DNA from: a virus
Lineage: Duplodnaviria > Heunggongvirae > Uroviricota > Caudoviricetes
Direction: 5' to 3' (one strand)
Virus record (IMG/VR): IMGVR_UViG_2579778573_000005
DNA: 44,005 nucleotides
Part shown: in pieces, positions 3,903 to 43,406 of the stretch
Numbering within the stretch: position 1 is the first letter of the stretch
How the letters are laid out: the number at the start of each line of letters is the position of its first letter
The notes under the pieces: model-generated
Told to the model about the DNA's origin: nothing
Database searches by the model: none
What the model saw: the letters and a program-made list of their open reading frames with translations, nothing else
Translations under genes and position numbers: made by a program

Positions 3903-4415
3903 TTAATATACATGGAGAATACGAGCAACGCCCGCAAGAACGTCAACACCATTAATTACTCGTTTCATTTTTGCAGGATGAATCTCGTAAATAATTTTTC
4001 CATTTTGAACTCGTTTATAATAGCTCGGCGCAATCGTTACTGATTGCCCAACTGCTGATTTTGAATCAGTCCCCTGCGCGTCATCAGTAATCGCCGTAAT
4101 AAGCCCCTCATATGTATCAATACGTTCAAAATTGACACCGTAATTGTCAGTATATGCACTTCGAATTTCGAACCTTGTTTTAGCACCTGGTATTAATCCC
4201 AAATACCCCATCACACCAGAATCGGAGCCAGAGACTTTAAAACTGGCTGACATTTTCTCCATTCCCCCGTCCAGAGTGATAGCTGTATCCATAGCGCCCG
4301 TCTTAAAATCATCTTCGATTATTTTCATATCGACGGGAGTGTATTCAGTGCAATTTAAAACTCGTTCTCCCTGGACGAACAACGCAAATGCACGATAGGT
4401 GTTACTATCTGCCAT
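3903..4415 (-). CDS. Tail tube protein (P2 FII-like)
   Basis: Track ORF 170 aa directly after the sheath gene. Confidence 0.6.
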   Translation of the reverse strand: MADSNTYRAFALFVQGERVLNCTEYTPVDMKIIEDDFKTGAMDTAITLDGGMEKMSASFKVSGSDSGVMGYLGLIPGAKTRFEIRSAYTDNYGVNFERIDTYEGLITAITDDAQGTDSKSAVGQSVTIAPSYYKRVQNGKIIYEIHPAKMKRVINGVDVLAGVARILHVY

Positions 4416-4432
4416 ATCAATTCTCCAGATTA

Positions 4433-5935
4433 TTAGACTGTTTCTTTAAAAAGAGAGGCCAGAGCTTCAACTGTGTAATCATTATTAATGCGGTACATTA
4501 ACGTAATTGTTTGTGCCGGGGATTTCGGTCCAAAGTCAACATTAATATAAAGATTACCAGCGGCCAGACTTTCTTTTGTATTTAACTCTTCATCTAACCA
4601 CGCCCGTCCTCCGTTAATCGCGCCCTGCTCCTCTAATTTATGCAGATACGCGTTTATCGACTCTACAACGTCTGTTCCGAGGTGCAGGTCTATCGGGCGA
4701 TCAATAAAATCGGTCATCATTGCCCGGGCTATTGAATCCTCAATTACGTCAGCTGTCCGACGAACGCATTCAAAGGACCATTGGGGACTGAGGCTACACA
4801 GATAGTTACCCCAGTGTCTGAATCCATCATAGCGAATAATTGTGCTGACCTGGCTGGCGTTCAGCAGATTTGCTGTGCAGTTCGTTTCACCGATTATAAA
4901 ATCATCGACTTGTTCGAGTCCTGTAATTCCGTAGATATTTTGATTCGATTTGCTCCACCAAAACCCTTTTTCGTTATCAATTCTGGCTCGTAAACCAGCA
5001 GCGATAGCTGAATACGGACGAGATAAACCACTAACATCACTCGTAGAATAAACACGAGGGCGCAGAATTTCCATTCTGCCGCCGTACCTCTGACGACGAT
5101 TTACAACGTCAGCAGGCGTAGCGCCTCGCGGTGAATCGATATATCCAACGCCTCGTAATTTATTTGTCACCACTTCAAGTTGTTCTGCAATATAATCGTT
5201 AGCACTATAATCTGGAGCGATTAAAATTCTCGGCGTTACTTGATTTATTTGCGCAGACGTCAACAATGCGTTAATCCCGTTAACGACGTTCTGCCGCATT
5301 TTTGTTTCGTCGCTGTCCTCTTCGACGCGGACAACAACAATAATGGCATCCTCCTGATTTAGTATTTCAGATACAGCGGGAGGAAGGGTTCCAGACCCAC
5401 CGAGCAATCCAGCTTTTTTTTGACTGCCTGCAATTAACGTCGGAACATTATATTTGAACGATTCGTCTTTACCACCGGATAAATTTGTTGGGGGGAGCGC
5501 GAATACAGTCCCCGTTCCTGCGTGATCACCACCGAATGTGACGTTAATATATTCTCCAATCTGGAGTCCTTCTTTATACTGCTGGTTCTGATCGTACATT
5601 TTTGACGGGGTCATGGCACCGTCCGTGATCATTGTTAATTTTCTCGAACCGTCGGGCAGTGTGCTGTATCCTGGAGTTGCTACATTCCCGTTAATTCCCA
5701 AATCAACAATTTCAACAATCCAGTTGTTTCCGTCGGCCCCTGGCATGACAGTCGAAAACTCAACAAGATTGTCTGCGAGCTCTGATCCCCATAATAGTGA
5801 TGCACAAGTTGGGTAGCTGGAATCGGGAGCAGTACCAACAATCCCAATCACGGAAATATCTACTGTGTTGATCTCTTTTGTGCCGTCGTCGTATTCGAGC
5901 GTGCGAATACCGTGTAAAAAATTAGTTACGCTCAT
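4433..5935 (-). CDS. Contractile tail sheath protein (P2 FI-like)
   Basis: Track ORF 500 aa; N-terminal region resembles P2 FI sheath. Confidence 0.8.
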   Translation of the reverse strand: MSVTNFLHGIRTLEYDDGTKEINTVDISVIGIVGTAPDSSYPTCASLLWGSELADNLVEFSTVMPGADGNNWIVEIVDLGINGNVATPGYSTLPDGSRKLTMITDGAMTPSKMYDQNQQYKEGLQIGEYINVTFGGDHAGTGTVFALPPTNLSGGKDESFKYNVPTLIAGSQKKAGLLGGSGTLPPAVSEILNQEDAIIVVVRVEEDSDETKMRQNVVNGINALLTSAQINQVTPRILIAPDYSANDYIAEQLEVVTNKLRGVGYIDSPRGATPADVVNRRQRYGGRMEILRPRVYSTSDVSGLSRPYSAIAAGLRARIDNEKGFWWSKSNQNIYGITGLEQVDDFIIGETNCTANLLNASQVSTIIRYDGFRHWGNYLCSLSPQWSFECVRRTADVIEDSIARAMMTDFIDRPIDLHLGTDVVESINAYLHKLEEQGAINGGRAWLDEELNTKESLAAGNLYINVDFGPKSPAQTITLMYRINNDYTVEALASLFKETV

Positions 5936-6321
5936 TTTATTCCTTCTCTATTTTCACCAATTCGCGTCGCTATTGCTTCTTTAAGCTCGGCCAAATTTTC
6001 GATTTGCGCGTCAGATGCGGTTCCGGCATCTACTGCACACTGAATTGAGAATGCCTCAATTGACAGATCGCCAACAGTCCGTAATGTAGTCTGGAGTTTT
6101 TGCGTCTGCTCTTTTTTTACAAATTTAGAAATGCTCCCATAATCCCCGCTCAGCGCTCTTTCATATAAAACCCTACCGTGTTCCTCGCAATCATTTTTCA
6201 TTGCGGTGAATGGAATGTCGTTTCCAATCCCGTCAATATCGCAAATAATATTTATAGATAACCCATGCTCGTCATTAAAAACAGGGTTTGTTATTTTTCT
6301 AAATGAATCAACGCTTATCAT
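5932..6321 (-). CDS. Putative tail fiber assembly protein (positional)
   Basis: Track ORF 129 aa immediately downstream of the tail fiber gene, overlapping stop/start. Confidence 0.35.
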   Translation of the reverse strand: MISVDSFRKITNPVFNDEHGLSINIICDIDGIGNDIPFTAMKNDCEEHGRVLYERALSGDYGSISKFVKKEQTQKLQTTLRTVGDLSIEAFSIQCAVDAGTASDAQIENLAELKEAIATRIGENREGIK

Positions 6322-26050: not shown

Positions 26051-26249
26051 GATAAATTAGCAGTGCGTTGAAAACAGATAGTTATTCCCATCAGTTCCAA
26101 CGTAATACACATCAAAAAAATCACCATTCTTTTGCTCTAACGTCAACACCTACCCTTAAAAAAATAATTCTCCAAGAATGAGAAAGTTATTGTGTGTATT
26201 AGATAAGATATGAGCTGACACATCTATGGCGTGGAGCCAAATTTAATAT

Positions 26250-26281
26250 GACAGTCCGCTCTGTGCCATAAGCGGACTGTC
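26250..26281. terminator. 10-bp perfect inverted repeat hairpin between convergent genes
   Basis: GACAGTCCGC ... GCGGACTGTC with 12-nt loop. Confidence 0.35.
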
Positions 26282-26466
26282 AATAAACAGATTCACTTGT
26301 AAATCTTGAAGCTATACATATTTACTTTCAATGATAAATAAAAGAACTATCCAAAAATCACTGAGAGCATATTTTAACTAACCCTCCGCTACTATTAACA
26401 TAAATTTCACCCAACCATAATTAAATTGATACATATAGCAACTTACCTTGATACGAATCATCTGGG

Positions 26467-27165
26467 TTATATTTTTCCATATTTTTTTCCGTCAAATCGA
26501 ATCATGCCAGGATCAAGAAAATTAATTAAATCGATTAACGCGTGCTGTATTCTGATTAGCCTTTCTTTATAAATTCCGATATCTCTTGTCATATTTATCA
26601 CTTCATTGTTTAAATCTAAAAAAAATGGCTCATTGATAAAGCAATTTTCCTTTGTGAAACTGCCGTAACCTATGCAATCAAATCCAGTATCTGTTGATAT
26701 CAGCATCTTTTCTGCAATAGCTCTCTGCTCTCCTATGAAAAACATAAAATACTGACCAAAGACGTCTGTTTGGATTAATGAGTTAATATTGTTCTGTAAT
26801 CTAATAAACTCCCTCATTTTTTTATTTTTTTCTAGGCTAAGGTATTGAATGTCTATGCGGGCAGCTTCTGTCCATGCAAAAAACTGGGAAAAAAGAAAAA
26901 CAGTATTGTTGATAACATAATCTTGTTGGCGCTTATTCCCATTATGATAAAACTCTTCAATGAACCCCAATTCTAATATATTATAAATACGGCTTTGTAA
27001 GTCTGAAGCTGAGCGAATTAACGGTTCAATATAGTACTGATGTTTTCTCCTTACATCCAGTGATTCATTGAGCTTGTTTATTCTATTCTGATTATAAGTA
27101 GATATAGCAATAGAGATTATAGCTATTGCACCACTAATAAAGCTTGAAATTAATGCCGTACCCAT
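26467..27165 (-). CDS. AT-rich gene for N-terminally membrane-anchored protein, unknown function (accessory candidate)
   Basis: Track ORF 232 aa; one N-terminal hydrophobic helix; markedly lower GC than flanking phage genes. Confidence 0.55.
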   Translation of the reverse strand: MGTALISSFISGAIAIISIAISTYNQNRINKLNESLDVRRKHQYYIEPLIRSASDLQSRIYNILELGFIEEFYHNGNKRQQDYVINNTVFLFSQFFAWTEAARIDIQYLSLEKNKKMREFIRLQNNINSLIQTDVFGQYFMFFIGEQRAIAEKMLISTDTGFDCIGYGSFTKENCFINEPFFLDLNNEVINMTRDIGIYKERLIRIQHALIDLINFLDPGMIRFDGKKYGKI

Positions 27166-28305
27166 CTAAAAGTCCTTTGATTCTTGCTTGGTTAACAAAA
27201 TGACATAATTTTATTTAATGCCATAACAACTTAACAATATATCATAATATGATTATTATGGTGTAGCTTGTCGCATCTACGCTCCATTACAAACAGATGT
27301 AAGATATAACCTATATGTTTTAGCCAGCAAATTCGAAAGCATTCAAAGTAGTCTCATCGAACTCTCGAAACCCTATGTCTTCGGGTATAAAATATTTAAA
27401 TCCATTTGCATAATATCGACTCATGTTTATTATATTCTCCCCATTCACCATTAAGATTTGACATTATTTTCAACAATCGGTTATTGCAAGATTGAAATAT
27501 ATTTTTACTTGACACAATATTCCATGTAGCCCAGCGATTCGACTTACCCCCAACTATACGGACAATCTAAATTAAATCGATGATTTTTTGATACATTCTC
27601 CTCTCTCCATTACTTTATGTTTTTGTTCCCCAAAAATACCTTGCTCTCTAAAAAATAATTGTTCTTTAAGTTCAAAATCGAGATCTACATGAGCGTTAGA
27701 TACAAAGCTAATATGTTGAAATGTCTTTCCCCCCCCCATAACGGCATTGTTATCTAAACTATGTTACACAAATATAATATTACCCTTTCAACGTAATCCA
27801 AGAATAAGATTAATGCCATTATATATATCATAAATATGATATTTTGTATATTTTTATCATTTAGCCTTGATTGTACTAGGTGTACTCTCAACGAAGTAGG
27901 GAAAGTCTGTTCCTCGCTCACAGCTGCCCTTCAGTAAGCGAAAAAATGCCTACTCGGTGCCATATACAGCCATTGTTATTAACAGCAGGGAATAATTCAA
28001 AACTGAAATTAAATATCTACCTTTTACAGTAGAAATAGTTCCTCCAGGACACTATCCATTGCCGGGCACAATCACTCGGGGTATAACGATATAAAATATG
28101 TTCATGATAGTGCAGGTTCGTATATTAAGTTCAGCAGCGAAAACATGCCTTACAGGTTTCCGGTTTTGGGAGCGTCGTTACAGGATCCTGCGCATACCGT
28201 TCCCATCTGTTGAATTAAAGGTTTCACAGCCTTTGCCGATATCACCTTTTACCTTACCTGTGATGCGTTCAGTGCTGAAGTGGTCAACAAAAACTGGCCA
28301 CCGAG

Positions 28306-35811: not shown

Positions 35812-36288
35812 TCATGCATGGTGGTCTTGCGCAGTGCGTATCACTGCTCCTCGCGTCGCTACCAGCGCCGCTATTGCTTCGTCAATTTCCTGAATAGTTA
35901 ACTCTGGCGCGAAGTGGAGATGTACAGCGTTAATCGCTTCCACCCCTTCTTTTGCCGCCAGCGTTGCCAGCAAAACGGGATCGCCCGGCGACTCCAGACG
36001 TGCCCGCCGTTCTGCGGGTAGCACGGCTTTCATCACACTGGCCAGCACCTGAGTTTTTCGGCGCGCCGCCGTTGTCTCGCCACGTAACCAGCGAAAGATT
36101 TTCTGCCGATTGTTGTTGATGGCTCTCCAGTCCACGTTGCCGTCCGCGTCCTCAAATTCATGTAGTCTCAACTCATCATTGCGTCCCTGACTGAACCAGG
36201 CCCGGCAGATTTCAATCGTGACGAGTTCCTGCCCTGCCCTTGCCGCCCAGGTCAAAATCTCTTTTTGTAATTCCTCTTGGTTTTCCAT
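35812..36288 (-). CDS. Putative CII-like lysogeny regulator
   Basis: Track ORF 158 aa immediately downstream of cro. Confidence 0.4.
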   Translation of the reverse strand: MENQEELQKEILTWAARAGQELVTIEICRAWFSQGRNDELRLHEFEDADGNVDWRAINNNRQKIFRWLRGETTAARRKTQVLASVMKAVLPAERRARLESPGDPVLLATLAAKEGVEAINAVHLHFAPELTIQEIDEAIAALVATRGAVIRTAQDHHA

Positions 36289-36346
36289 AGCGTCTCCTGT
36301 CGCTAAAAATTGATTACGCTTAATCAGATTTGGGGCTCACCAACAG

Positions 36347-36577
36347 TTAAGCTGCTTCCGTTTTAGGCAAGCTGTCATCTGGGTTTGGGTAAAGATCCGG
36401 TCTAAGATCATGAGGGGTCACGCGCCATTCAAGAGCTTCAGATGTGCGCAAAACCTCTTCACCGGGAACCCGTCCTTTGAACCAGAGGCTTACCGTTTGT
36501 GGTTTTTTCCCTAATCGCCGCCCTAACTCGGATTGACTCATTACGGAAAGAATTTTGTCTTGCAGTTGTTTATCCAT
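36347..36577 (-). CDS. cro: Cro-like HTH repressor
   Basis: 76 codons from ATG 36577 with AAGGAG RBS (track ORF extends to a TTG at 36613); HTH QSELGRRLGKKPQTVSLW; divergent from the repressor gene. Confidence 0.6.
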   Translation of the reverse strand: MDKQLQDKILSVMSQSELGRRLGKKPQTVSLWFKGRVPGEEVLRTSEALEWRVTPHDLRPDLYPNPDDSLPKTEAA

Positions 36578-36602
36578 ATGGACTCCTTGTGTCCGCGTCA
36601 TC

Positions 36603-36642
36603 ATTACAAACAATAACTGTAATTACAAATTATATTTGCAAT
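36603..36642. promoter_or_regulatory. Rightward operator region: two overlapping ATTACA-N9-TG(T/C)AAT sites plus pR -10
   Basis: ATTACAAACAATAACTGTAAT (36603-36623) and ATTACAAATTATATTTGCAAT (36622-36642); minus-strand TATAAT at 36629-36634. Confidence 0.5.
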
Positions 36643-36675
36643 GCTCCCTACAATTAAACCTTGTATCCTTACGGT

Positions 36676-37089
36676 ATGAACACAAAAACGAAAAACATGG
36701 CTTTTGCTAGCCGACTACAACGGATTCTAAAAGACTTAGGCTGGTCTCAATCTGAGTTAGCTCGCCATATTGGGGTTACGGCTCAATCAGTTCAGGCATG
36801 GTGTAATGGGGTAACTCCAAGAAAAGATAAATTAGACAAGCTAGCAAAAGTGACCGGATACCCTGTTCATTTTTTCTTCATGAATGAAGGGGAATATTTG
36901 GATGAATCCACACTACACCCGGGTAATTACAATCAAGAACTAACCCCGCAAGAACAGGCTCTACTGCAACTATTCAGAGGACTGCCTGAGAGCGAAAAAA
37001 ATAAATTAATCAATGAGCTAAAAGAAAAAAGAGAGCACTTCGATCTACTGCTAAAAGAACTACTTGAAGCCAAAAACCAGACAAAATAG
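36676..37089 (+). CDS. Prophage repressor (CI-like, HTH only, no S24 peptidase domain)
   Basis: Track ORF starts at TTG 36661; first ATG 36676; HTH WSQSELARHIGVTAQSVQAW. Confidence 0.65.
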   Translation: MNTKTKNMAFASRLQRILKDLGWSQSELARHIGVTAQSVQAWCNGVTPRKDKLDKLAKVTGYPVHFFFMNEGEYLDESTLHPGNYNQELTPQEQALLQLFRGLPESEKNKLINELKEKREHFDLLLKELLEAKNQTK

Positions 37090-37207
37090 TTCAGTTCAAA
37101 TTTCCAGGCCAGCCGCTGCTGGCATGCAACTTTCCCCTAACACAAAAACACCTTTACACAGTGAATATTTTTTTGCCCCTCACTACAAATTATTTTTTAA
37201 AAACACA

Positions 37208-37236
37208 TTGACCATTACAAATACAAATTGTAAAGT
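37208..37236 (+). promoter_or_regulatory. Candidate early-left promoter pL with embedded operator
   Basis: TTGACC-17-TAAAGT; the 17-bp spacer is an ATTACA-N9-TGTAAA site (37214-37234). Confidence 0.5.
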
Positions 37237-37804
37237 CACTTTCATCAACAACGCTTACCCAGCGGCAGTTGTTCAGAAACACGTTCTGACAGCCGGAAAG
37301 ACGGCACCAAATTTTGCGCGTCGGCGCCAACACGGTGACAGAGGGAAAGACTTCACCGGCATATGGCACATGTGTCGAAGCGGTCTGGATGGAAGCGGAG
37401 CCTTAACGCGTTGTCTCCATAGCAGGTAGCCGGAATGTGCAAGCCACAGCCAGGTATGAGCGATTGATTCACCATCAAGGCGATACGGTGTGACCACCAG
37501 GGAAGAGTCCTGGCTACAACACGAGAGCGCACTTCATCGACTCAACTTTGAGCTTTGTCGTTAAATTTTGAAATGGCGGAGTGCGCTCCCGGTTGTGGTG
37601 AACAGGTGTTTAACGGGAACTCCCTGCCCGTTACCCGGTTCGATTCCGGGCGCCCATCATCAATTTGCTGTGTTTAGTCTTTGCCCAGTCCGCACGATGG
37701 GCCATTTTTTCACACAGCCAGGTTTTATCGCTGTGCCTGAGTCCCCAACAGGAGAGGCCAAACCCGCAGCGTGACACCAGGGAAAGACCGGAGGAAGTAC
37801 CACG

Positions 37805-37871
37805 CCTGACCAGCGTTGACCATGAGCCTGACCAGCTCAAAACAGGAAAGACCAGCCCGGGCCTGACCAGC
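37805..37871 (+). repeat. Three direct copies of CCTGACCAGC within ~70 bp
   Basis: Copies at about 37805, 37827 and 37862 in the ORF-poor leader. Confidence 0.5.
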
Positions 37872-38099
37872 CCTGTACGGTCGTAATGGAAACATAACGA
37901 CGCCGGAAACGTAACCGGCACCCTTTAGATAGCAAAAGACCCGCACAAGGCGGGCCAGTTACCCCGAACGGCGACCAAACCATTCGGATTTATCACAAGT
38001 GACCAAACTTGTGATGAGGAAAGACCAACGACACTGACGCTATGGAAGCTGATCAATATTCGCTGATCGGCTCTGAGTATACATTACCAAGGAGTCGCT

Positions 38100-38420
38100 A
38101 TGGAAGCGCGCACCATCCCAGTAACACTCTTTATTCATTATGCAACTTCAACTTTCAGCCACGAAAAGCTGCTTGTTGCGACTGTTGATATGTCAAAAAA
38201 TTTTCCAGACAGGTACATCCTTCTGGAAAGCCGCGAAATTGAAATTACCGTTAACCAGCCCGAGCCAATCGACATCATCGGTTTACAGGTCGAGCAACTG
38301 CGTGAACAAAAACAGAAAACAGTCGCCGACGCCCAACAGCGTATTGCTGCTATCGATGACAAAATCCAGCAGTTACTTTGCATCGAATACACGCCAGATA
38401 CCGATGAGCTCCCCTACTAA
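38100..38420 (+). CDS. Hypothetical early protein
   Basis: Track ORF 106 aa; AGGAG RBS. Confidence 0.45.
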   Translation: MEARTIPVTLFIHYATSTFSHEKLLVATVDMSKNFPDRYILLESREIEITVNQPEPIDIIGLQVEQLREQKQKTVADAQQRIAAIDDKIQQLLCIEYTPDTDELPY

Positions 38421-38450
38421 AAACCACTGACCTGTAATGAGGAAAGACCA

Positions 38451-40667
38451 ATGACCATTTTTAACGGCTTGTTAGAAGCGAAAAAAGGCGCGCTCAAAAA
38501 CGGCGCGATCCCGGCGCTGGCCATCGCCATCGCCGCCCCTAACAAAAAAGTTGCCGAGAACATCATCATCGGCAAATTGTGGGAAGCCTACCCTGACCAC
38601 GGCGACAACTATTTCAAACCTAAAATCTGGGAAGATGCCCCGGGCCAACCGCGCCCAGGCGTCGGTGAGTTTGATGAGACGTTTGCCACAGAACACAGTT
38701 TTGATGGCGAAAAATGGGTAGTTAACACTCCTGTTGATTCAGATTGCAGTTCAGCAGATATCTCACAGGTTAGCGACCTGATGAAACTGCCGGCTCGTGA
38801 ACGATTCGCCGCCGTTCTGCTGTTCAGCCACGACGCCAACGAAGTCGACAGTGAATTGCTTGTGCAGACGCGTGAATACCTGGAGATGCTCGATAACAGT
38901 GATACTGACAGTGAGGATGAGGTTGACGCGTTTAACCGCATCGTTCTTGATGCCATGGTGGCGTGTAAGCCCATCGAGTACATGCATATTGCTGGATTGA
39001 ATAATCTGGTACATGCAATTTTGGCAAGTTGCGATACCCAGGAACAAAACCCGACCAGTTGGACTATCTCCAAATTTATAAAAAAATGGGTAGAGAATCC
39101 CGGTAAACGAGATGAAATGCTGCCGGAGGTAAAACCAGAAACAGCATCCGCACGTCCTTACAAACAGACTCACGCCACTCTGGATCGTGAAATTGCCTGC
39201 GCCCTGTTACCTGTTGCCCCGGAAAAAATCACCCCCAGCATCCTGAAAGCGGCAGACGAAATAATCAGTCAGGACAGGGAAGATTTTAAACGCTGGTCAA
39301 TGGCCTTGCGCACAACGGATCAGATCCTTGCCTATGACCGCGCATCAGTATTCGGTGTTATTCAGAGCGCCCCCGCAAAAGACACGTACCACTTCCCACA
39401 ATCCCTGCGCAGTCACATCGACAACTGGCTGCAAGCTAACGGGCAGCGTGATGCAAATGCTGTTGAAGAGAAGCCAAAGGAAGCAGCACCCAAGGATGAT
39501 GTAAAAGTCACCAACCACGGCGGCGGACGATTCTCAATTGATGGGATGATGTCAGAAACACCCTCAAATCAGGGCGAAAAAAGCGAAGCTGCAAATGCTG
39601 GAGAACGTAGTTTGCAGCAGTTGCGTGAGCAGTTTGTCACGCCTCGCCATGTGTATGACGTACCTGAAAATAACGCCGTATCACAGAGGGAACCTGCAGC
39701 TATTACCCTGGCAGAAGAGACTCCTCCACAAGAACAACTTAGCGAGCAGGTAAAGGATCTGGTGCAGAACGTTGACGCGCTGGTTGAGCGGATCCATGCC
39801 GAAGAGCACAAGCGGCAGAATGCAATCTCAGCTATCGAAACGGAGTTAAAGGACTCAGATGACACGGATAACCTGGCATTGTGGAAGAACGTATTCAAAA
39901 CCGATGAGCGCTTCACCAGTGCTTTCTCTCAGAATGGCGGCGGCACATCCATCAACGGCACTTATATAGCGATGAAAGCGACTCGCGAATTTGGGCCATT
40001 TGGTATTGGCTGGGGGGTAGAGGTGCTGGAGGAGCGCTTTGATAAAGGCGCACCAATAGTTCGCAAAAAACAGGTTGGTGAAAAAATAGAATGGGATCTG
40101 ATTCAAGACGGTGTTGGCGGGTACCTATGTGAAATGCACCACACCATGAAAGTGAGAGTCTGGTACATATTGAATGGGGTACGCGGTGAGTCCGAGGCTT
40201 ACGGATGCACACCTTATATCTACGACACTAAATACGGACCAACAAGCGACGGCGAAGCACCGAAGAAATCCTGGACGGATGCTGTTAAGAAAGCGCTATC
40301 CCCTCTCGGATTCAGCGCCGATATTTTCATGGGCCTGTACGACAATCCGGAATACCGCCAGAGGAATAAAGCTGAGTTTGATATCAAGAATGCCAGCGAG
40401 AATGCGGAAGATGCTACCCGTCTGCGTAAGGAACTGGATGAGAAGCTTATCAACGTTGCCAATACGCTGGCCGCCGCGGTAACCGCCAACGAAGTAAACA
40501 AGGTATTTGGCCTCATCGCCCGCGAAGTGGATGTACACAGGAAAGCAGCGGAAACCAAAGGCGATAAAGAATATTCATCGTATCTGGGATCACGTCTGCG
40601 CCGTATCACCGACATTAAAACTGAACGCCTCGCCGCCCTTACCGCTGCACAGGAGCAAACAGCATGA
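38451..40667 (+). CDS. Large early protein of unknown function
   Basis: Track ORF 738 aa; GAGGAAAGACCA RBS module; acidic N-terminal half; no family recognised by eye. Confidence 0.5.
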   Translation: MTIFNGLLEAKKGALKNGAIPALAIAIAAPNKKVAENIIIGKLWEAYPDHGDNYFKPKIWEDAPGQPRPGVGEFDETFATEHSFDGEKWVVNTPVDSDCSSADISQVSDLMKLPARERFAAVLLFSHDANEVDSELLVQTREYLEMLDNSDTDSEDEVDAFNRIVLDAMVACKPIEYMHIAGLNNLVHAILASCDTQEQNPTSWTISKFIKKWVENPGKRDEMLPEVKPETASARPYKQTHATLDREIACALLPVAPEKITPSILKAADEIISQDREDFKRWSMALRTTDQILAYDRASVFGVIQSAPAKDTYHFPQSLRSHIDNWLQANGQRDANAVEEKPKEAAPKDDVKVTNHGGGRFSIDGMMSETPSNQGEKSEAANAGERSLQQLREQFVTPRHVYDVPENNAVSQREPAAITLAEETPPQEQLSEQVKDLVQNVDALVERIHAEEHKRQNAISAIETELKDSDDTDNLALWKNVFKTDERFTSAFSQNGGGTSINGTYIAMKATREFGPFGIGWGVEVLEERFDKGAPIVRKKQVGEKIEWDLIQDGVGGYLCEMHHTMKVRVWYILNGVRGESEAYGCTPYIYDTKYGPTSDGEAPKKSWTDAVKKALSPLGFSADIFMGLYDNPEYRQRNKAEFDIKNASENAEDATRLRKELDEKLINVANTLAAAVTANEVNKVFGLIAREVDVHRKAAETKGDKEYSSYLGSRLRRITDIKTERLAALTAAQEQTA

Positions 40668-41233
40668 GCACTGCTATCGCTATTGCAAAAGAATATGCCA
40701 GTCTGATTGACCTGTTAGAAACCGCCGATGAACTGACGCCAGAGATGATCGCCGACACGCTTGAAGGCATGGAAGGAGAACTGGGAGACAAACTGGACGC
40801 CATGATGGTCATCTGCCGTAATTTACAGGGCAATGCCAATACCTGCGCTGAAGAAATGTCTCGCCTGGCAACCCGTAAGACGTCCTTTGAAGGCAAGGAA
40901 AAAGCAATTCGAAAGCATATGCTCACCTGCCTGCAAGCTGCTGGCCTGGATAAACTGAAAACCGCAAAAAACACATTTACTGATGCACAGGGGGCTATCC
41001 GGGTAATTATCGATAGCAAAGATAAGATCCCGGATGAGTATGAGGGCGTGTCACTTGTTGATGTAGAAACGGTTATTACACCAAACAAGCGAGCCATTAA
41101 AGAAGTGATTGAATCTGCGGAGGCGGTTGCCGCCGAAATACTGGCGCGTGGAGAAACACCACCAGCCGAGTTATTAAACCCGGTACCAGGCGCACATCTG
41201 GAACGCGGCGAACGGTCACTGAGGATACGCTAA
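40664..41233 (+). CDS. Gp157-like protein (siphovirus Gp157 family resemblance)
   Basis: Track ORF 189 aa; N-terminal pattern EYASLIDLLE...ADTLEGMEGE. Confidence 0.4.
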   Translation: MSTAIAIAKEYASLIDLLETADELTPEMIADTLEGMEGELGDKLDAMMVICRNLQGNANTCAEEMSRLATRKTSFEGKEKAIRKHMLTCLQAAGLDKLKTAKNTFTDAQGAIRVIIDSKDKIPDEYEGVSLVDVETVITPNKRAIKEVIESAEAVAAEILARGETPPAELLNPVPGAHLERGERSLRIR

Positions 41234-41415
41234 TGCTTAAACTCACATTAAAGCGTGGTGACGCGGTTCACCTGGTACTTGCCGATGGTACCAATGGCAT
41301 TATTGAAGCACGGAGCCGCTGCGAACTTGGGCTACACCTGCCAGAAAACATTAAGGTCACTCGGGAGAAATCGGCATTCACCCCACAAGAACTGATTACG
41401 CCTAATCAGAAATAA
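41233..41415 (+). CDS. CsrA/RsmA-like small protein
   Basis: Track ORF 60 aa, translationally coupled (TAATG); ungapped alignment to E. coli CsrA matches L2, L4, T5, G9, G33, P37, V42, R44, E45. Confidence 0.4.
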   Translation: MLKLTLKRGDAVHLVLADGTNGIIEARSRCELGLHLPENIKVTREKSAFTPQELITPNQK

Positions 41416-41464
41416 AAACTCACCATCGCTAGCATTGCGATTCACCAGACACCGGAGGATCACA

Positions 41465-41689
41465 ATGCTGCGATGGCAACCGGGAGCAACTCTGCTCTCC
41501 GCATTTGATATCAAAATTGGTCGACTGTCGGCCAGCGTCAGGAAACAGACTTTGACCGAGTCTGATATTGCCCGTGCCTGCCAGAAGGCAGATGACGCAA
41601 TAAGCTACATAATGAGGAAAGACCATGAAAAGCGATCACGACATAATCACCAGAGAAGAAATGGTCGAGCTGACGGGAAGCCCACTTAA
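41465..41689 (+). CDS. Hypothetical small protein
   Basis: Track ORF 41435-41689; ATG 41465 with GGAGGA RBS; 3' end overlaps next gene. Confidence 0.3.
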   Translation: MLRWQPGATLLSAFDIKIGRLSASVRKQTLTESDIARACQKADDAISYIMRKDHEKRSRHNHQRRNGRADGKPT

Positions 41690-41888
41690 ATCAAAGCAAT
41701 GTGAGGCTCTTCGCCGGGCTGGAATTTTCTTCATGGAAAGGGCTGACGGACACCCAAAAACAACCTGGGGCCATTTCATGAACCCAATAAAATTTCGCAA
41801 TTTACAGGAGGTGACGACGCGAAAAGATGATGAACCTGATTTTGGAGCAATATTTAATGGCCGGAAAGAGAAAGAACCCAGCAGATAA
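41625..41888 (+). CDS. DUF4224-like protein upstream of integrase (possible excisionase/directionality factor)
   Basis: Track ORF 87 aa; IITREEMVELTG...RRAGIFF pattern; GAGGAAAGACC RBS module. Confidence 0.5.
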   Translation: MKSDHDIITREEMVELTGSPLKSKQCEALRRAGIFFMERADGHPKTTWGHFMNPIKFRNLQEVTTRKDDEPDFGAIFNGRKEKEPSR

Positions 41889-42873
41889 CTGGATGCCGCC
41901 TCGTGTTTACCAGGGCAAAGCGGCCTACGAATTCAGGAATAAAGATAACAAAGCGATACGCCTGTGCGCATTGGATGCACCACGATCAGCCGTATGGCTG
42001 GCATATGAAAAAGCGGTCGGTGACGAAAAAGAAAGAAATACTTTTCAGGCGCTCACGGAACAATTCATGACCTCCCCTGATTTTATGGATTTGGCAGTCG
42101 AAACCCGGAAAGACTACACAAAATATTCCGGAAAAGTTCTGCCTGTCTTCGGGAAGATCGACCCGGATAAAATCAAACCTGAACATATTCGGCGCTATAT
42201 GGATCAACGCGGTTTATCAAGCCGAACTCAGGCAAACAGGGAAAAAAGCTTTATGTCCCGGGTATTCCGTTGGGGTTATGAACGAGGTTATGTTCAGAGG
42301 AATCCTTGTCAGGGAGTTAAACAGTTTAAAGAGAAAGCTCGCGAACGTTATATTACGGATGAAGAATATCAGGCCGTTTATGAAGTGTCTCCTGATGTTG
42401 TTCGCGTAGCAATGGAGATTGCCTACTTATGCGTGGCCAGACAGAGTGATGTACTTTCATTGCAGAAAGACCAGCTGTTCGATTCCGGGATCTACATTCG
42501 TCAGGGAAAAACCGGCGTTAAGCAAATCAAAGCCTGGTCGCCTCGTCTGCAGAAAGCGATAGCTCTGGCTCGTTCTCTGCCATTAAAAACGGGAATCAGT
42601 AGCCTGTTTGTGATTCATCAAACTACCGGTGGCAAGTATACCCGTGATGGTTTTAACTCTCGTTGGCGTGATGTCAAAGCGGCAGCACAGGAAAAATATC
42701 CTCATCTGCAAATAGACTTCACATTTCATGATCTGAAAGCAAAAGGTATCTCTGATCTGGAAGGCAGCCTGGAAGAGAAGCAAGCAATTTCCGGGCATAA
42801 GAACCCGCGACAGACAGCAGCATATGACCGGAAAGTTAAAGTAGTGCCCGTAGTTGGTGGCCAGAGAAAATGA
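41857..42873 (+). CDS. int: Tyrosine integrase
   Basis: Track ORF 41827-42873; likely start ATG 41857; ends 130 bp from the tRNA-Leu 3' end. Confidence 0.8.
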   Translation: MAGKRKNPADNWMPPRVYQGKAAYEFRNKDNKAIRLCALDAPRSAVWLAYEKAVGDEKERNTFQALTEQFMTSPDFMDLAVETRKDYTKYSGKVLPVFGKIDPDKIKPEHIRRYMDQRGLSSRTQANREKSFMSRVFRWGYERGYVQRNPCQGVKQFKEKARERYITDEEYQAVYEVSPDVVRVAMEIAYLCVARQSDVLSLQKDQLFDSGIYIRQGKTGVKQIKAWSPRLQKAIALARSLPLKTGISSLFVIHQTTGGKYTRDGFNSRWRDVKAAAQEKYPHLQIDFTFHDLKAKGISDLEGSLEEKQAISGHKNPRQTAAYDRKVKVVPVVGGQRK

Positions 42874-42878
42874 ATGAT

Positions 42879-42913
42879 GATGCGTCCAGAGAAAAATCAT
42901 CTTCGGACGCATC
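42879..42913. promoter_or_regulatory. 9-bp inverted repeat in the int-tRNA spacer (att-region element or int terminator)
   Basis: GATGCGTCC ... GGACGCATC with 17-nt loop. Confidence 0.3.
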
Positions 42914-42933
42914 TTCGGAAATGAGAAAGAAGA

Positions 42934-42960
42934 TACAAAAAAACCACCCGAAGGTGGTTT
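42934..42960 (-). terminator. Rho-independent terminator downstream of tRNA-Leu
   Basis: Minus strand AAACCACC-TTCG-GGTGGTTT followed by TTTTT. Confidence 0.65.
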
Positions 42961-43003
42961 CACGACACTGCTTATTGCTTTGATTTTATTCTTATCTTTC
43001 CCA

Positions 43004-43090
43004 TGGTACCCGGAGCGGGACTTGAACCCGCACAGCGCGAACGCCGAGGGATTTTAAATCCCTTGTGTCTACCGATTCCACCATCCGGGC
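43004..43090 (-). tRNA. leuZ: tRNA-Leu (anticodon UAA)
   Basis: 87-nt reverse complement reads GCCCGGATGGTGGAATCGGTAGACACAAGGGATTTAAAATCCC...CCA with long variable arm. Confidence 0.9.
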
Positions 43091-43102
43091 TCGGGAAAAA
43101 AG

Positions 43103-43176
43103 TGGAGGCGCGTTCCGGAGTCGAACCGGACTAGACGGATTTGCAATCCGCTACATAACCGCTTTGTTAACGCGCC
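43103..43176 (-). tRNA. cysT: tRNA-Cys (anticodon GCA)
   Basis: 74-nt reverse complement reads GGCGCGTTAACAAAGCGG...GATTGCAAATC...TCCA. Confidence 0.9.
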
Positions 43177-43229
43177 AAATTCTTCAGGCCTTTCAGCCAG
43201 ACATCCGCTGACGCCGATGCCTTTTAAAC

Positions 43230-43305
<76 letters not shown>

Positions 43306-43378
43306 ATTCATCAAGCAATCAGTTAATCACTTGATTTTATTATCGTCTGGCAATCAGTGCCGCCGTTCGATGCGTTGC

Positions 43379-43406
43379 ATTCTACTTACCTGGCGCGATG
43401 AGTCAA
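43379..43406 (-). promoter_or_regulatory. Promoter of the tRNA-Gly/Cys/Leu operon
   Basis: Minus strand TTGACT-16-TAGAAT ~75 bp upstream of tRNA-Gly. Confidence 0.55.

Follow-up and report, generated by a model that had tools for sequence, protein, structure and literature searches.

An Escherichia coli prophage encodes a protein of 738 amino acids (aa) that is probably a modular phage recombination protein, with a Rad52-superfamily annealase as its working end. The prophage is the source of the DNA analysed here (IMG/VR record IMGVR_UViG_2579778573_000005; the whole stretch of 44,005 nucleotides is called the window), and it combines lambdoid early genes with contractile-tail late genes. A first-pass annotation had described an early open reading frame (ORF) of 738 codons for the largest non-structural protein. 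Its coordinates, + strand and ATG start are confirmed (Table 1), and the ORF is in fact the longest of all in the 44-kb window, the runner-up having 653 aa. The Rad52-type identification is unsurprising for such a genomic position, and both the fold and the chemistry are known. What is new is an unrecognised subfamily, its domain architecture and its fixed Gp157 partner. In the literature, of which the coverage was incomplete, no description of this annealase subfamily or of its fusion to a YdfE_N module was found.

The same annotation had placed the protein in no recognisable family. At full length this holds for Pfam-A, for a sequence search of the PDB and for PADLOC, all of which came back empty, and the RefSeq entry is a hypothetical protein. 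It does not hold for PHROGs (phrog_2489), for Pfam YdfE_N (PF27430) or for the C-terminal third, which has a Rad52 fold. The earlier interpretation is thus supported in part. The fusion of separable modules, the homology of the N-terminus to the non-catalytic part of RecE and the role of Gp157 as a tightly coupled, proposed partner had gone unnoticed.

The Rad52-type C-terminal domain

Profile hidden Markov model comparison and structure prediction, the checks suggested in the first-pass annotation, recovered a Rad52-type fold in the C-terminal third of the protein. It is very likely that aa 471-632 form such an annealase fold. The AlphaFold2 (AF2) model of aa 461-738, built from the alignment, has a predicted local distance difference test score (pLDDT) of 91.6 and a predicted template modelling score (pTM) of 0.71. 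The best structural matches of aa 471-738 are human RAD52, yeast Mgm101 and Sak of phage 80alpha. When the model of all 738 residues was compared with the PDB by Foldseek, the sole significant matches were five RAD52 chains (E=1.8e-5 to 4.6e-5, probability 1.0). In BFVD, all named significant matches are Rad52/59/22, RAD52-like or "DNA repair" proteins, and the weaker ones (E 0.01-0.2) include Erf, single-strand annealing (SSAP) and Bet proteins. The predicted secondary structure consists of strands at 489-492 and 498-501, a helix at 503-514, three long strand pairs within 521-599 and a helix at 603-619. This order agrees with the b-b-a-b-b-b-a order of the annealase core (PMC11611040). The Gly-rich C-terminal region with the motif FGPFGIGWG, which had been noticed and left unplaced, is present as described, with 11.8% Gly over aa 471-640, and its counterpart in RAD52 is given in Table 1.

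In a 37-member alignment of the family, the top conserved block reads DGEAPKKSLTDAxKKALSxLGFSADIFxG and corresponds in the prophage protein to KKSWTDAVKKALSPLGF. Residues K605, K606 and K614 are invariant in the family alignments, and K613 is conserved in at least 90% of the sequences. Pfam Rad52_Rad22 (PF04098) is matched at E<=1 by 31 of the 37 members, at best with 8.3e-5, and any other family is hit by three members at most. The prophage protein itself scores 13.4-13.5 bits (E about 0.07) against a gathering threshold of 20.3, and it therefore belongs to a separate subfamily, outside PF04098 as now defined, that escapes current Pfam thresholds. RecT/Redbeta (PF03837), Erf (PF04404) and Sak3/DUF1071 (PF06378) were not matched in aa 451-738 even at E<=10.

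An hhalign comparison with residues 1-212 of a single RAD52 sequence covered 127 columns with E=6.4e-4 and a probability of 28%. The alignment pairs Y584-G585 with Y126-G127, K605 with K144, T609-D610 with T148-D149, K613-K614 with K152-R153 and G620 with G159. The RAD52 sequence used places K152, R153 and R156 as in the literature, and errors elsewhere in it are possible.

The modular build of the protein emerged from a tblastn search of phage genomes, in which Pseudomonas, Vibrio, Sulfitobacter and Pelagibacter phages proved to encode stand-alone counterparts of its residues 472-664, with lengths of ~200-270 aa. One of these already bears the annotation of a putative SSAP. With aa 461-738 as the query, a protein search brought up many such stand-alone proteins of ~240-280 aa. 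The stand-alone homologues occur in recombination/replication modules of phages, beside Gp157, single-stranded DNA-binding protein (SSB), NinB, NinG, RdgC or nucleases. An internal start that would yield a stand-alone annealase from the prophage ORF itself was rejected on the sequence alone, as there is no in-frame Met near aa 460-475. The three long helices that close the protein in the AF2 models are a candidate oligomerisation or partner-binding domain.

Compared with human RAD52's N-terminal domain and with yeast Mgm101 (PF04098), the identity is only 16-19%. The prophage protein differs from both in its longer beta-hairpins, its three-helix C-terminal region, an N-terminal extension of 470 residues and its origin in a bacterial virus. 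Annealases of the Sak type (lactococcal ul36 Sak; staphylococcal 80alpha Sak, DUF1071/Sak3) and of the P22 Erf type are stand-alone proteins of 170-270 aa, whereas the prophage protein carries YdfE_N.

The YdfE_N module, the linker and the relationship to RecE

A protein of identical sequence (P0069) and all orthologues are listed with a precomputed Pfam match to YdfE_N, and the N-terminal module was taken as aa 1-335. Its relationship to RecE-type proteins is limited in extent and lies wholly within aa 42-336. In PHROGs, phrog_2489 (labelled "exonuclease") is matched end to end, and the RecE-type families phrog_607 and phrog_2082 only over aa 232-333. The NCBIfam model for exonuclease VIII, PRK09709, aligns aa 233-336 with its positions 262-370 of 877 (E=1.9e-12), at 46.1 bits against an equivalog cutoff of 1269. 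By BLASTP, Rac RecE aligns only from 263 to 332 with aa 243-308, about 70 residues at 26% identity (E=0.007).

The nuclease domain of RecE comprises residues 564-866, and the N-terminal remainder, "of unknown function", is dispensable for the nuclease (PMC11611040). No nuclease domain was detected in the 738-aa protein: Pfam gave no DUF3799/PDDEXK match, BLASTP no alignment to RecE 564-866 and Foldseek no nuclease fold. Outside the Rad52-like part, nothing in the PDB or BFVD matched the full-length model significantly by Foldseek. The protein has in common with RecE of Rac and with lambdoid RecE-like proteins the non-catalytic N-terminal region and a place in the operon immediately upstream of xis-int; it is also similarly large (738 aa, against 866 in RecE). 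Unlike in RecE, the C-terminal PD-(D/E)XK nuclease is replaced by the annealase, and the gene that follows encodes Gp157 and not a RecT-like protein.

An exhaustive HMMER search, run with aa 1-460 against 1.84 billion representative proteins, returned just 144 representatives. Among the 84 that are at least 450 aa long, 24 have a Rad52-like C-terminus, and the other 60 were clustered by their C-termini. Fourteen of these fall in a cluster whose scanned members carry the PD-(D/E)XK nuclease (DUF3799) and represent the true RecE type; 10-11 have a DEDD 3'-5' exonuclease (Rv2179c-like), one has a RecT fragment and several are unique. A further 21 representatives (P0220-type, 513-702 aa) share a C-terminus that has no Pfam match (phrog_26058). 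This is the largest YdfE_N fusion class after the annealase class, and by analogy with the others its C-terminus may be another recombination effector. The orthologues in Yersinia additionally carry Pfam YdfE_C. From these fusions, we infer that the YdfE_N module is a portable, non-catalytic unit for the targeting or regulation of recombination enzymes.

The full-length AF2 model (pLDDT 74.6, pTM 0.34) places an alpha/beta domain, two helical domains, a disordered linker and a long helix ahead of the annealase (Table 1). A "highly acidic N-terminal half", as first described, overstates the charge distribution. The half is indeed acidic (aa 1-370: isoelectric point (pI) 4.89, net charge -20), but so is the whole protein (pI 5.04, net -32), including aa 371-738 (pI 5.22, net -12); the excess of acidic residues is strongest in aa 61-180. 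Two conserved motifs were found in the linker, HGGGRFSIDGMM and SNQGEK. Both recur across fusion classes (annealase, PDDEXK, DEDD and unknown C-terminus), a distribution that suggests docking peptides.

Gp157, conservation and the early operon

The first-pass annotation had located the ORF in the early-left operon, just upstream of a Gp157-like gene, and this is borne out by the Pfam match of the downstream gene and by the overlap of its start with the stop of the 738-aa ORF (Table 1). To judge how regular this arrangement is, the 80 best-matching IMG/VR loci were surveyed, in which 78 of the annealase ORFs have an N-terminal extension. A Gp157 ORF lies immediately downstream in all 75 viral loci with enough sequence, its start lying -39 to 0 nt from the annealase stop; the remaining five loci end within about 0.6 kb. 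Gp157 also follows the stand-alone homologues in several contexts, and others adjoin SSB, RdgC, DEDD exonucleases or a putative nuclease. The two genes are translationally coupled and invariably adjacent, and Gp157 is proposed to be an accessory factor or obligate partner of the annealase. In Firmicutes phages, sipho_gp157 stands beside erf and sak4 in a position otherwise taken by Mu gam, DUF2483 or DUF1351, from which the authors infer an analogous function (PMC8093625). There gp157 lies upstream of the annealase, whereas in the prophage it lies downstream and overlaps.

Gp157 as a homologue of Mu Gam, as the PHROGs label "Mu Gam-like end protection" implies, is unsupported: authentic Mu Gam belongs to phrog_491 and Gp157 to phrog_253. 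BLASTP between the two gave E=1.4. The hhalign probability was 0.7% over 17 columns with a shallow profile (Neff 1.95), which very remote homology could escape. The one stretch that hhalign aligned, without significance, pairs aa 173-189 of Gp157 (PVPGAHLERGERSLRIR, window 41180-41230) with Mu Gam 89-105 (KVKTANLVTGDVSWRVR); it may be the source of the label, or chance. A search of PDB sequences with Gp157 found nothing.

The annealase ORF was found in 80 of 80 related viral loci and is under purifying selection. The ratio of nonsynonymous to synonymous substitution rates (dN/dS) is 0.19 for a pair with 99% identity and 0.08-0.55 wherever dS is unsaturated. A pseudogene or decaying remnant was rejected in view of the presence of the ORF in all these loci and of dN/dS values below 1. 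In divergent orthologues, identity is highest in the Rad52-like core (51-72%), followed by aa 1-92 (44-70%), and lowest in the linker (24-40%). Of 5426 complete E. coli genomes, 428 (~8%), ST131 among them, contain at least 80% of the region 36000-43400 (7.4 kb, ORF included). In many E. coli genomes the region is otherwise identical but broken up by IS1, IS150 or ISEc52 insertions; nine of the ten best matches consist of two pieces that flank a transposase. In Salmonella, orthologues are very common, and further ones are present in Yersinia and other Enterobacterales. Those of Yersinia (37-43% identity), for example that of Yersinia intermedia CP119768.1 (gene at 4001-6211 of locus L092), bear the NCBI name "transcription termination factor". 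The Yersinia prophage occupies the same chromosomal site, adjoining pgsA-uvrC, and its genes follow the same order, the difference being a full LexA-like repressor (HTH_3 + Peptidase_S24).

The E. coli prophage lies between yecA and the glyW-cysT-leuZ tRNA cluster, adjoining pgsA, and its integration site is tRNA-Leu (leuZ). The leftward early operon, on the + strand, consists of a cI-like repressor, a gap of ~1 kb, orf106, the 738-aa ORF, Gp157, orf60, an excisionase (DUF4224) and an integrase, followed by tRNA-Leu. A Shine-Dalgarno-like sequence, GAGGAAAG, is found 6 nt 5' of the start codon of the 738-aa ORF. A DnaB-type helicase is among the genes of the prophage, whose replication operon is on the strand opposite to the 738-aa ORF. 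No defence-system model of PADLOC was matched by any operon protein.

Table 1. Position of the 738-aa ORF, its predicted parts and neighbouring genes in the window
Feature	Position	Strand	Remarks
Whole ORF, 738 aa	38451..40667	+	ATG start; RefSeq WP_000151806.1, "hypothetical protein"
Alpha/beta domain, aa 1-92	38451..38726	+	part of YdfE_N module; AF2 pLDDT about 80-90
Acidic helical domain, aa 107-225	38769..39125	+	part of YdfE_N module; AF2 and composition
Helical domain, aa 234-335	39150..39455	+	most widely common to RecE-like "exodeoxyribonuclease VIII" proteins; corresponds to non-catalytic RecE residues ~262-370
Predicted disordered linker, aa 337-430	39459..39740	+	pLDDT below 50
Conserved linker motif HGGGRFSIDGMM, aa 356-367	39516..39551	+	consensus G-G-x-F-S-[IV]-[DE]-G-[LM]-[LM]
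Second conserved linker motif SNQGEK, aa 372-377	39564..39581	+	
Long helix leading to annealase domain, aa 432-468	39744..39854	+	AF2 model
Rad52-superfamily annealase domain (very likely), aa 471-632	39861..40346	+	
FGPFGIGWG, aa 514-522	39990..40016	+	aligns to RAD52 FGYNGW, end of helix before long beta-hairpin
Best-conserved block KKSWTDAVKKALSPLGF, aa 605-621	40263..40313	+	aligns to RAD52 helix lining the ssDNA groove
Three long C-terminal helices, aa 633-738	40347..40664	+	AF2 models
Sipho_Gp157 family gene, 189 aa	40664..41233	+	start overlaps 738-aa ORF stop (ATGA); Pfam E=9.2e-29
cI-like helix-turn-helix (HTH) repressor	36661-37089	+	leftward early operon
106-aa ORF (orf106), upstream of 738-aa ORF	38100..38420	+	same operon; phrog_2479, no function assigned
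60-aa ORF (orf60), 3' of Gp157	41233..41415	+	phrog_2482; weak CsrA-like signal

The Salmonella and Yersinia loci have an ORF of ~107-111 aa at the position of orf106, compared by position only. The signal in the 60-aa ORF is a weak Pfam match (E=0.097) of its aa 1-45 to positions 1-45 of 53 of a CsrA-like profile. Genes annotated as CsrA-like or "carbon storage regulator" are also present in the operons of stand-alone annealase homologues in Pseudomonas phage phiC725A and Vibrio phage VvAW1, and a small CsrA-like protein may travel together with the recombination module.

No gene is annotated in the interval of ~1 kb (37090-38100) that separates the cI-like repressor from the first ORF of the leftward operon. 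An Rfam scan of the operon yielded nothing beyond tRNAs and a sub-threshold RprA-like match at 37602-37712 on the + strand (37 bits against a gathering score of 70 bits, E=0.08). This match ends at a terminator-like hairpin (37688-37702), and a cluster of terminator-like hairpins lies on the - strand at 37848-37956. The interval could hold a small RNA or an antitermination element, or nothing. Elsewhere in the window, the segment 26000-28000 has a GC content of 0.33, against ~0.48 for the prophage. It spans a hypothetical gene and a gene for an ImmA/IrrE-family metallopeptidase (window ~26154-27257; L010 16749-17852), on the strand opposite to their neighbours, and looks like acquired cargo.

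Proposed mechanism, rival explanations and significance

In the mechanism that we favour, the Rad52-like domain would oligomerise, by analogy with RAD52, Mgm101 and Sak. Single-stranded DNA (ssDNA) would be bound in the groove lined by the helix with K605, K606, K613 and K614, and complementary strands would be annealed without ATP. Gp157 would be made together with the annealase as its accessory factor, and the flexible linker would tether the annealase to the YdfE_N module, which may target or regulate the enzyme. The prophage annotation includes no exonuclease and no second recombinase or separate annealase; the nin-like region has just DUF1367 and DUF1364 genes and Q. As no dedicated exonuclease is recognisable, resection is presumably supplied by the host, or else the annealase would act on ssDNA at replication forks; it probably works without a dedicated phage exonuclease. 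Once induced, the prophage would thereby be able to recombine independently of RecA, so as to circularise and repair its genome, to replicate in a recombination-dependent way and to exchange DNA with other lambdoid phages. RecA-independent and mosaic recombination has been shown for other Rad52-like phage recombinases (PMC3945230).

The proposed layout resembles that of P22 in lacking an exonuclease and in its small neighbouring genes. Erf of P22 is an annealase without its own 5'-3' exonuclease, and the small accessory proteins Abc1 and Abc2 are encoded alongside. The genes that neighbour the prophage ORF showed no homology to Abc1, Abc2 or lambda Gam. That the prophage annealase uses host RecBCD is no more than a conjecture.

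Several observations speak against the protein being a recombination annealase of this kind. The Pfam score of the 738-aa protein stays under the Rad52_Rad22 threshold, no RAD52 was recovered when PDB sequences were searched with the family profile, and the hhalign probability is low and refers to a single RAD52 sequence. RAD52 R55, Y65 and R156 are without identical counterparts in that alignment, and the annealase core is overall not basic (pI 6.2). The pTM of the full-length model is too low to define the inter-domain arrangement. A recombination role of the N-terminal module or of Gp157 is conjectural, the "Mu Gam-like" nature of Gp157 is unsupported, and no biochemical or genetic work on any member of the subfamily was found in the literature.

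By its names, the protein would be a RecE-like exonuclease (exodeoxyribonuclease VIII) that resects the ends of double-stranded DNA 5'-3' for a separate annealase. PHROGs labels phrog_2489, 7838, 607 and 2082 as exonucleases, the protein matches the NCBIfam exonuclease VIII model and, by tblastn, RecE-like genes of E. coli prophages, and a GenBank entry reads "exonuclease family protein" (P0070). All the RecE-type similarity maps, however, to RecE ~262-370, outside the nuclease domain, and the NCBIfam score is far below its cutoff. True RecE-type relatives give a DUF3799/PDDEXK match and this protein does not, nor does its full-length model contain a nuclease fold. The prophage has no separate annealase gene that such an enzyme could serve, and phrog_7838 consists of the Rad52-like domain alone, so that its label looks like a propagated error. 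We consider this explanation extremely improbable and already largely refuted. A second alternative, which we judge unlikely, accepts the Rad52-like domain and assigns its main job to replication, as a mediator or ssDNA handler for recombination-dependent replication or fork restart, with the N-terminal module docking onto the phage or host replisome (DnaB-type helicase, SSB or clamp). In S. aureus, phage replication reportedly depends on Sak-type annealases (PMC5499656). The stand-alone homologues adjoin SSB and replication genes, the prophage has its own DnaB-type helicase, and the conserved linker motifs are of the docking kind. Yet the gene lies in the leftward recombination/integration operon, opposite in strand to the replication operon, and canonical motifs for clamp or SSB binding were not identified. 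As the annealing chemistry would be identical, this explanation overlaps with a recombination annealase and does not oppose it.

The YdfE_N module might also be the main functional part, an anti-defence or host-takeover factor or a binder of DNA ends or host nucleases, with the fused enzymes as interchangeable cargo and host manipulation as the role. The module is conserved and occurs with no fewer than four unrelated C-termini. Its acidity is a frequent property of DNA mimics and nuclease inhibitors, and its aa 1-92 rank second in conservation within the protein. Full-length RecE also differs from the lone nuclease domain in linear-linear recombination (PMC11611040). Every identified cargo domain is nevertheless a DNA-recombination enzyme, which favours a role specific to recombination. 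The Rad52-like core is the most conserved region and exists as a stand-alone gene in many phages, and the module has no PADLOC or other matches; a role in host manipulation is quite doubtful.

As a tentative extension of the modular recombination protein, for which the chances seem rather low, the YdfE_N/RecE module and the linker peptides might form an adaptor that docks a 5'-3' nuclease, a 3'-5' exonuclease or an annealase onto one common host or phage partner or DNA structure. Examples would be the replisome, a host helicase-nuclease and a DNA end. The adaptor-annealase fusion and Gp157 would then constitute a complete two-gene recombination system that has no phage exonuclease and borrows host resection. 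If true, this would also account for the N-terminal two-thirds of RecE, which have long lacked an explanation.

The results also bear on current annotation. The "exonuclease" label of PHROGs families that comprise or end in the Rad52-like domain (phrog_2489, phrog_7838) is a mislabel; a stand-alone homologue of 249 aa (P0041) matches phrog_7838 at E=1.1e-98. The label is propagating into GenBank phage annotations, for example in the Vibrio phage D79 series (L009 3564-4334). The Pfam family "Exonuc_VIII" (PF06630) covers the first ~200 residues of RecE-like proteins (~4-170 in P0228, P0274 and P0313), the nuclease being a separate C-terminal DUF3799, and its name invites mis-annotation.

A widespread "hypothetical protein" thus receives a predicted function. 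For specialists in phage recombination and recombineering, the points of interest are the module shared with RecE, the wrongly labelled families and a layout that lacks an exonuclease. An E. coli-native Rad52-type annealase with a fixed Gp157 partner and without an exonuclease is a candidate recombineering tool. The N-terminal part of RecE appears as a module that phages combine with several recombination enzymes, which offers a comparative handle on its function. In the biology of these phages, the annealase is a likely driver of mosaicism among enterobacterial prophages.

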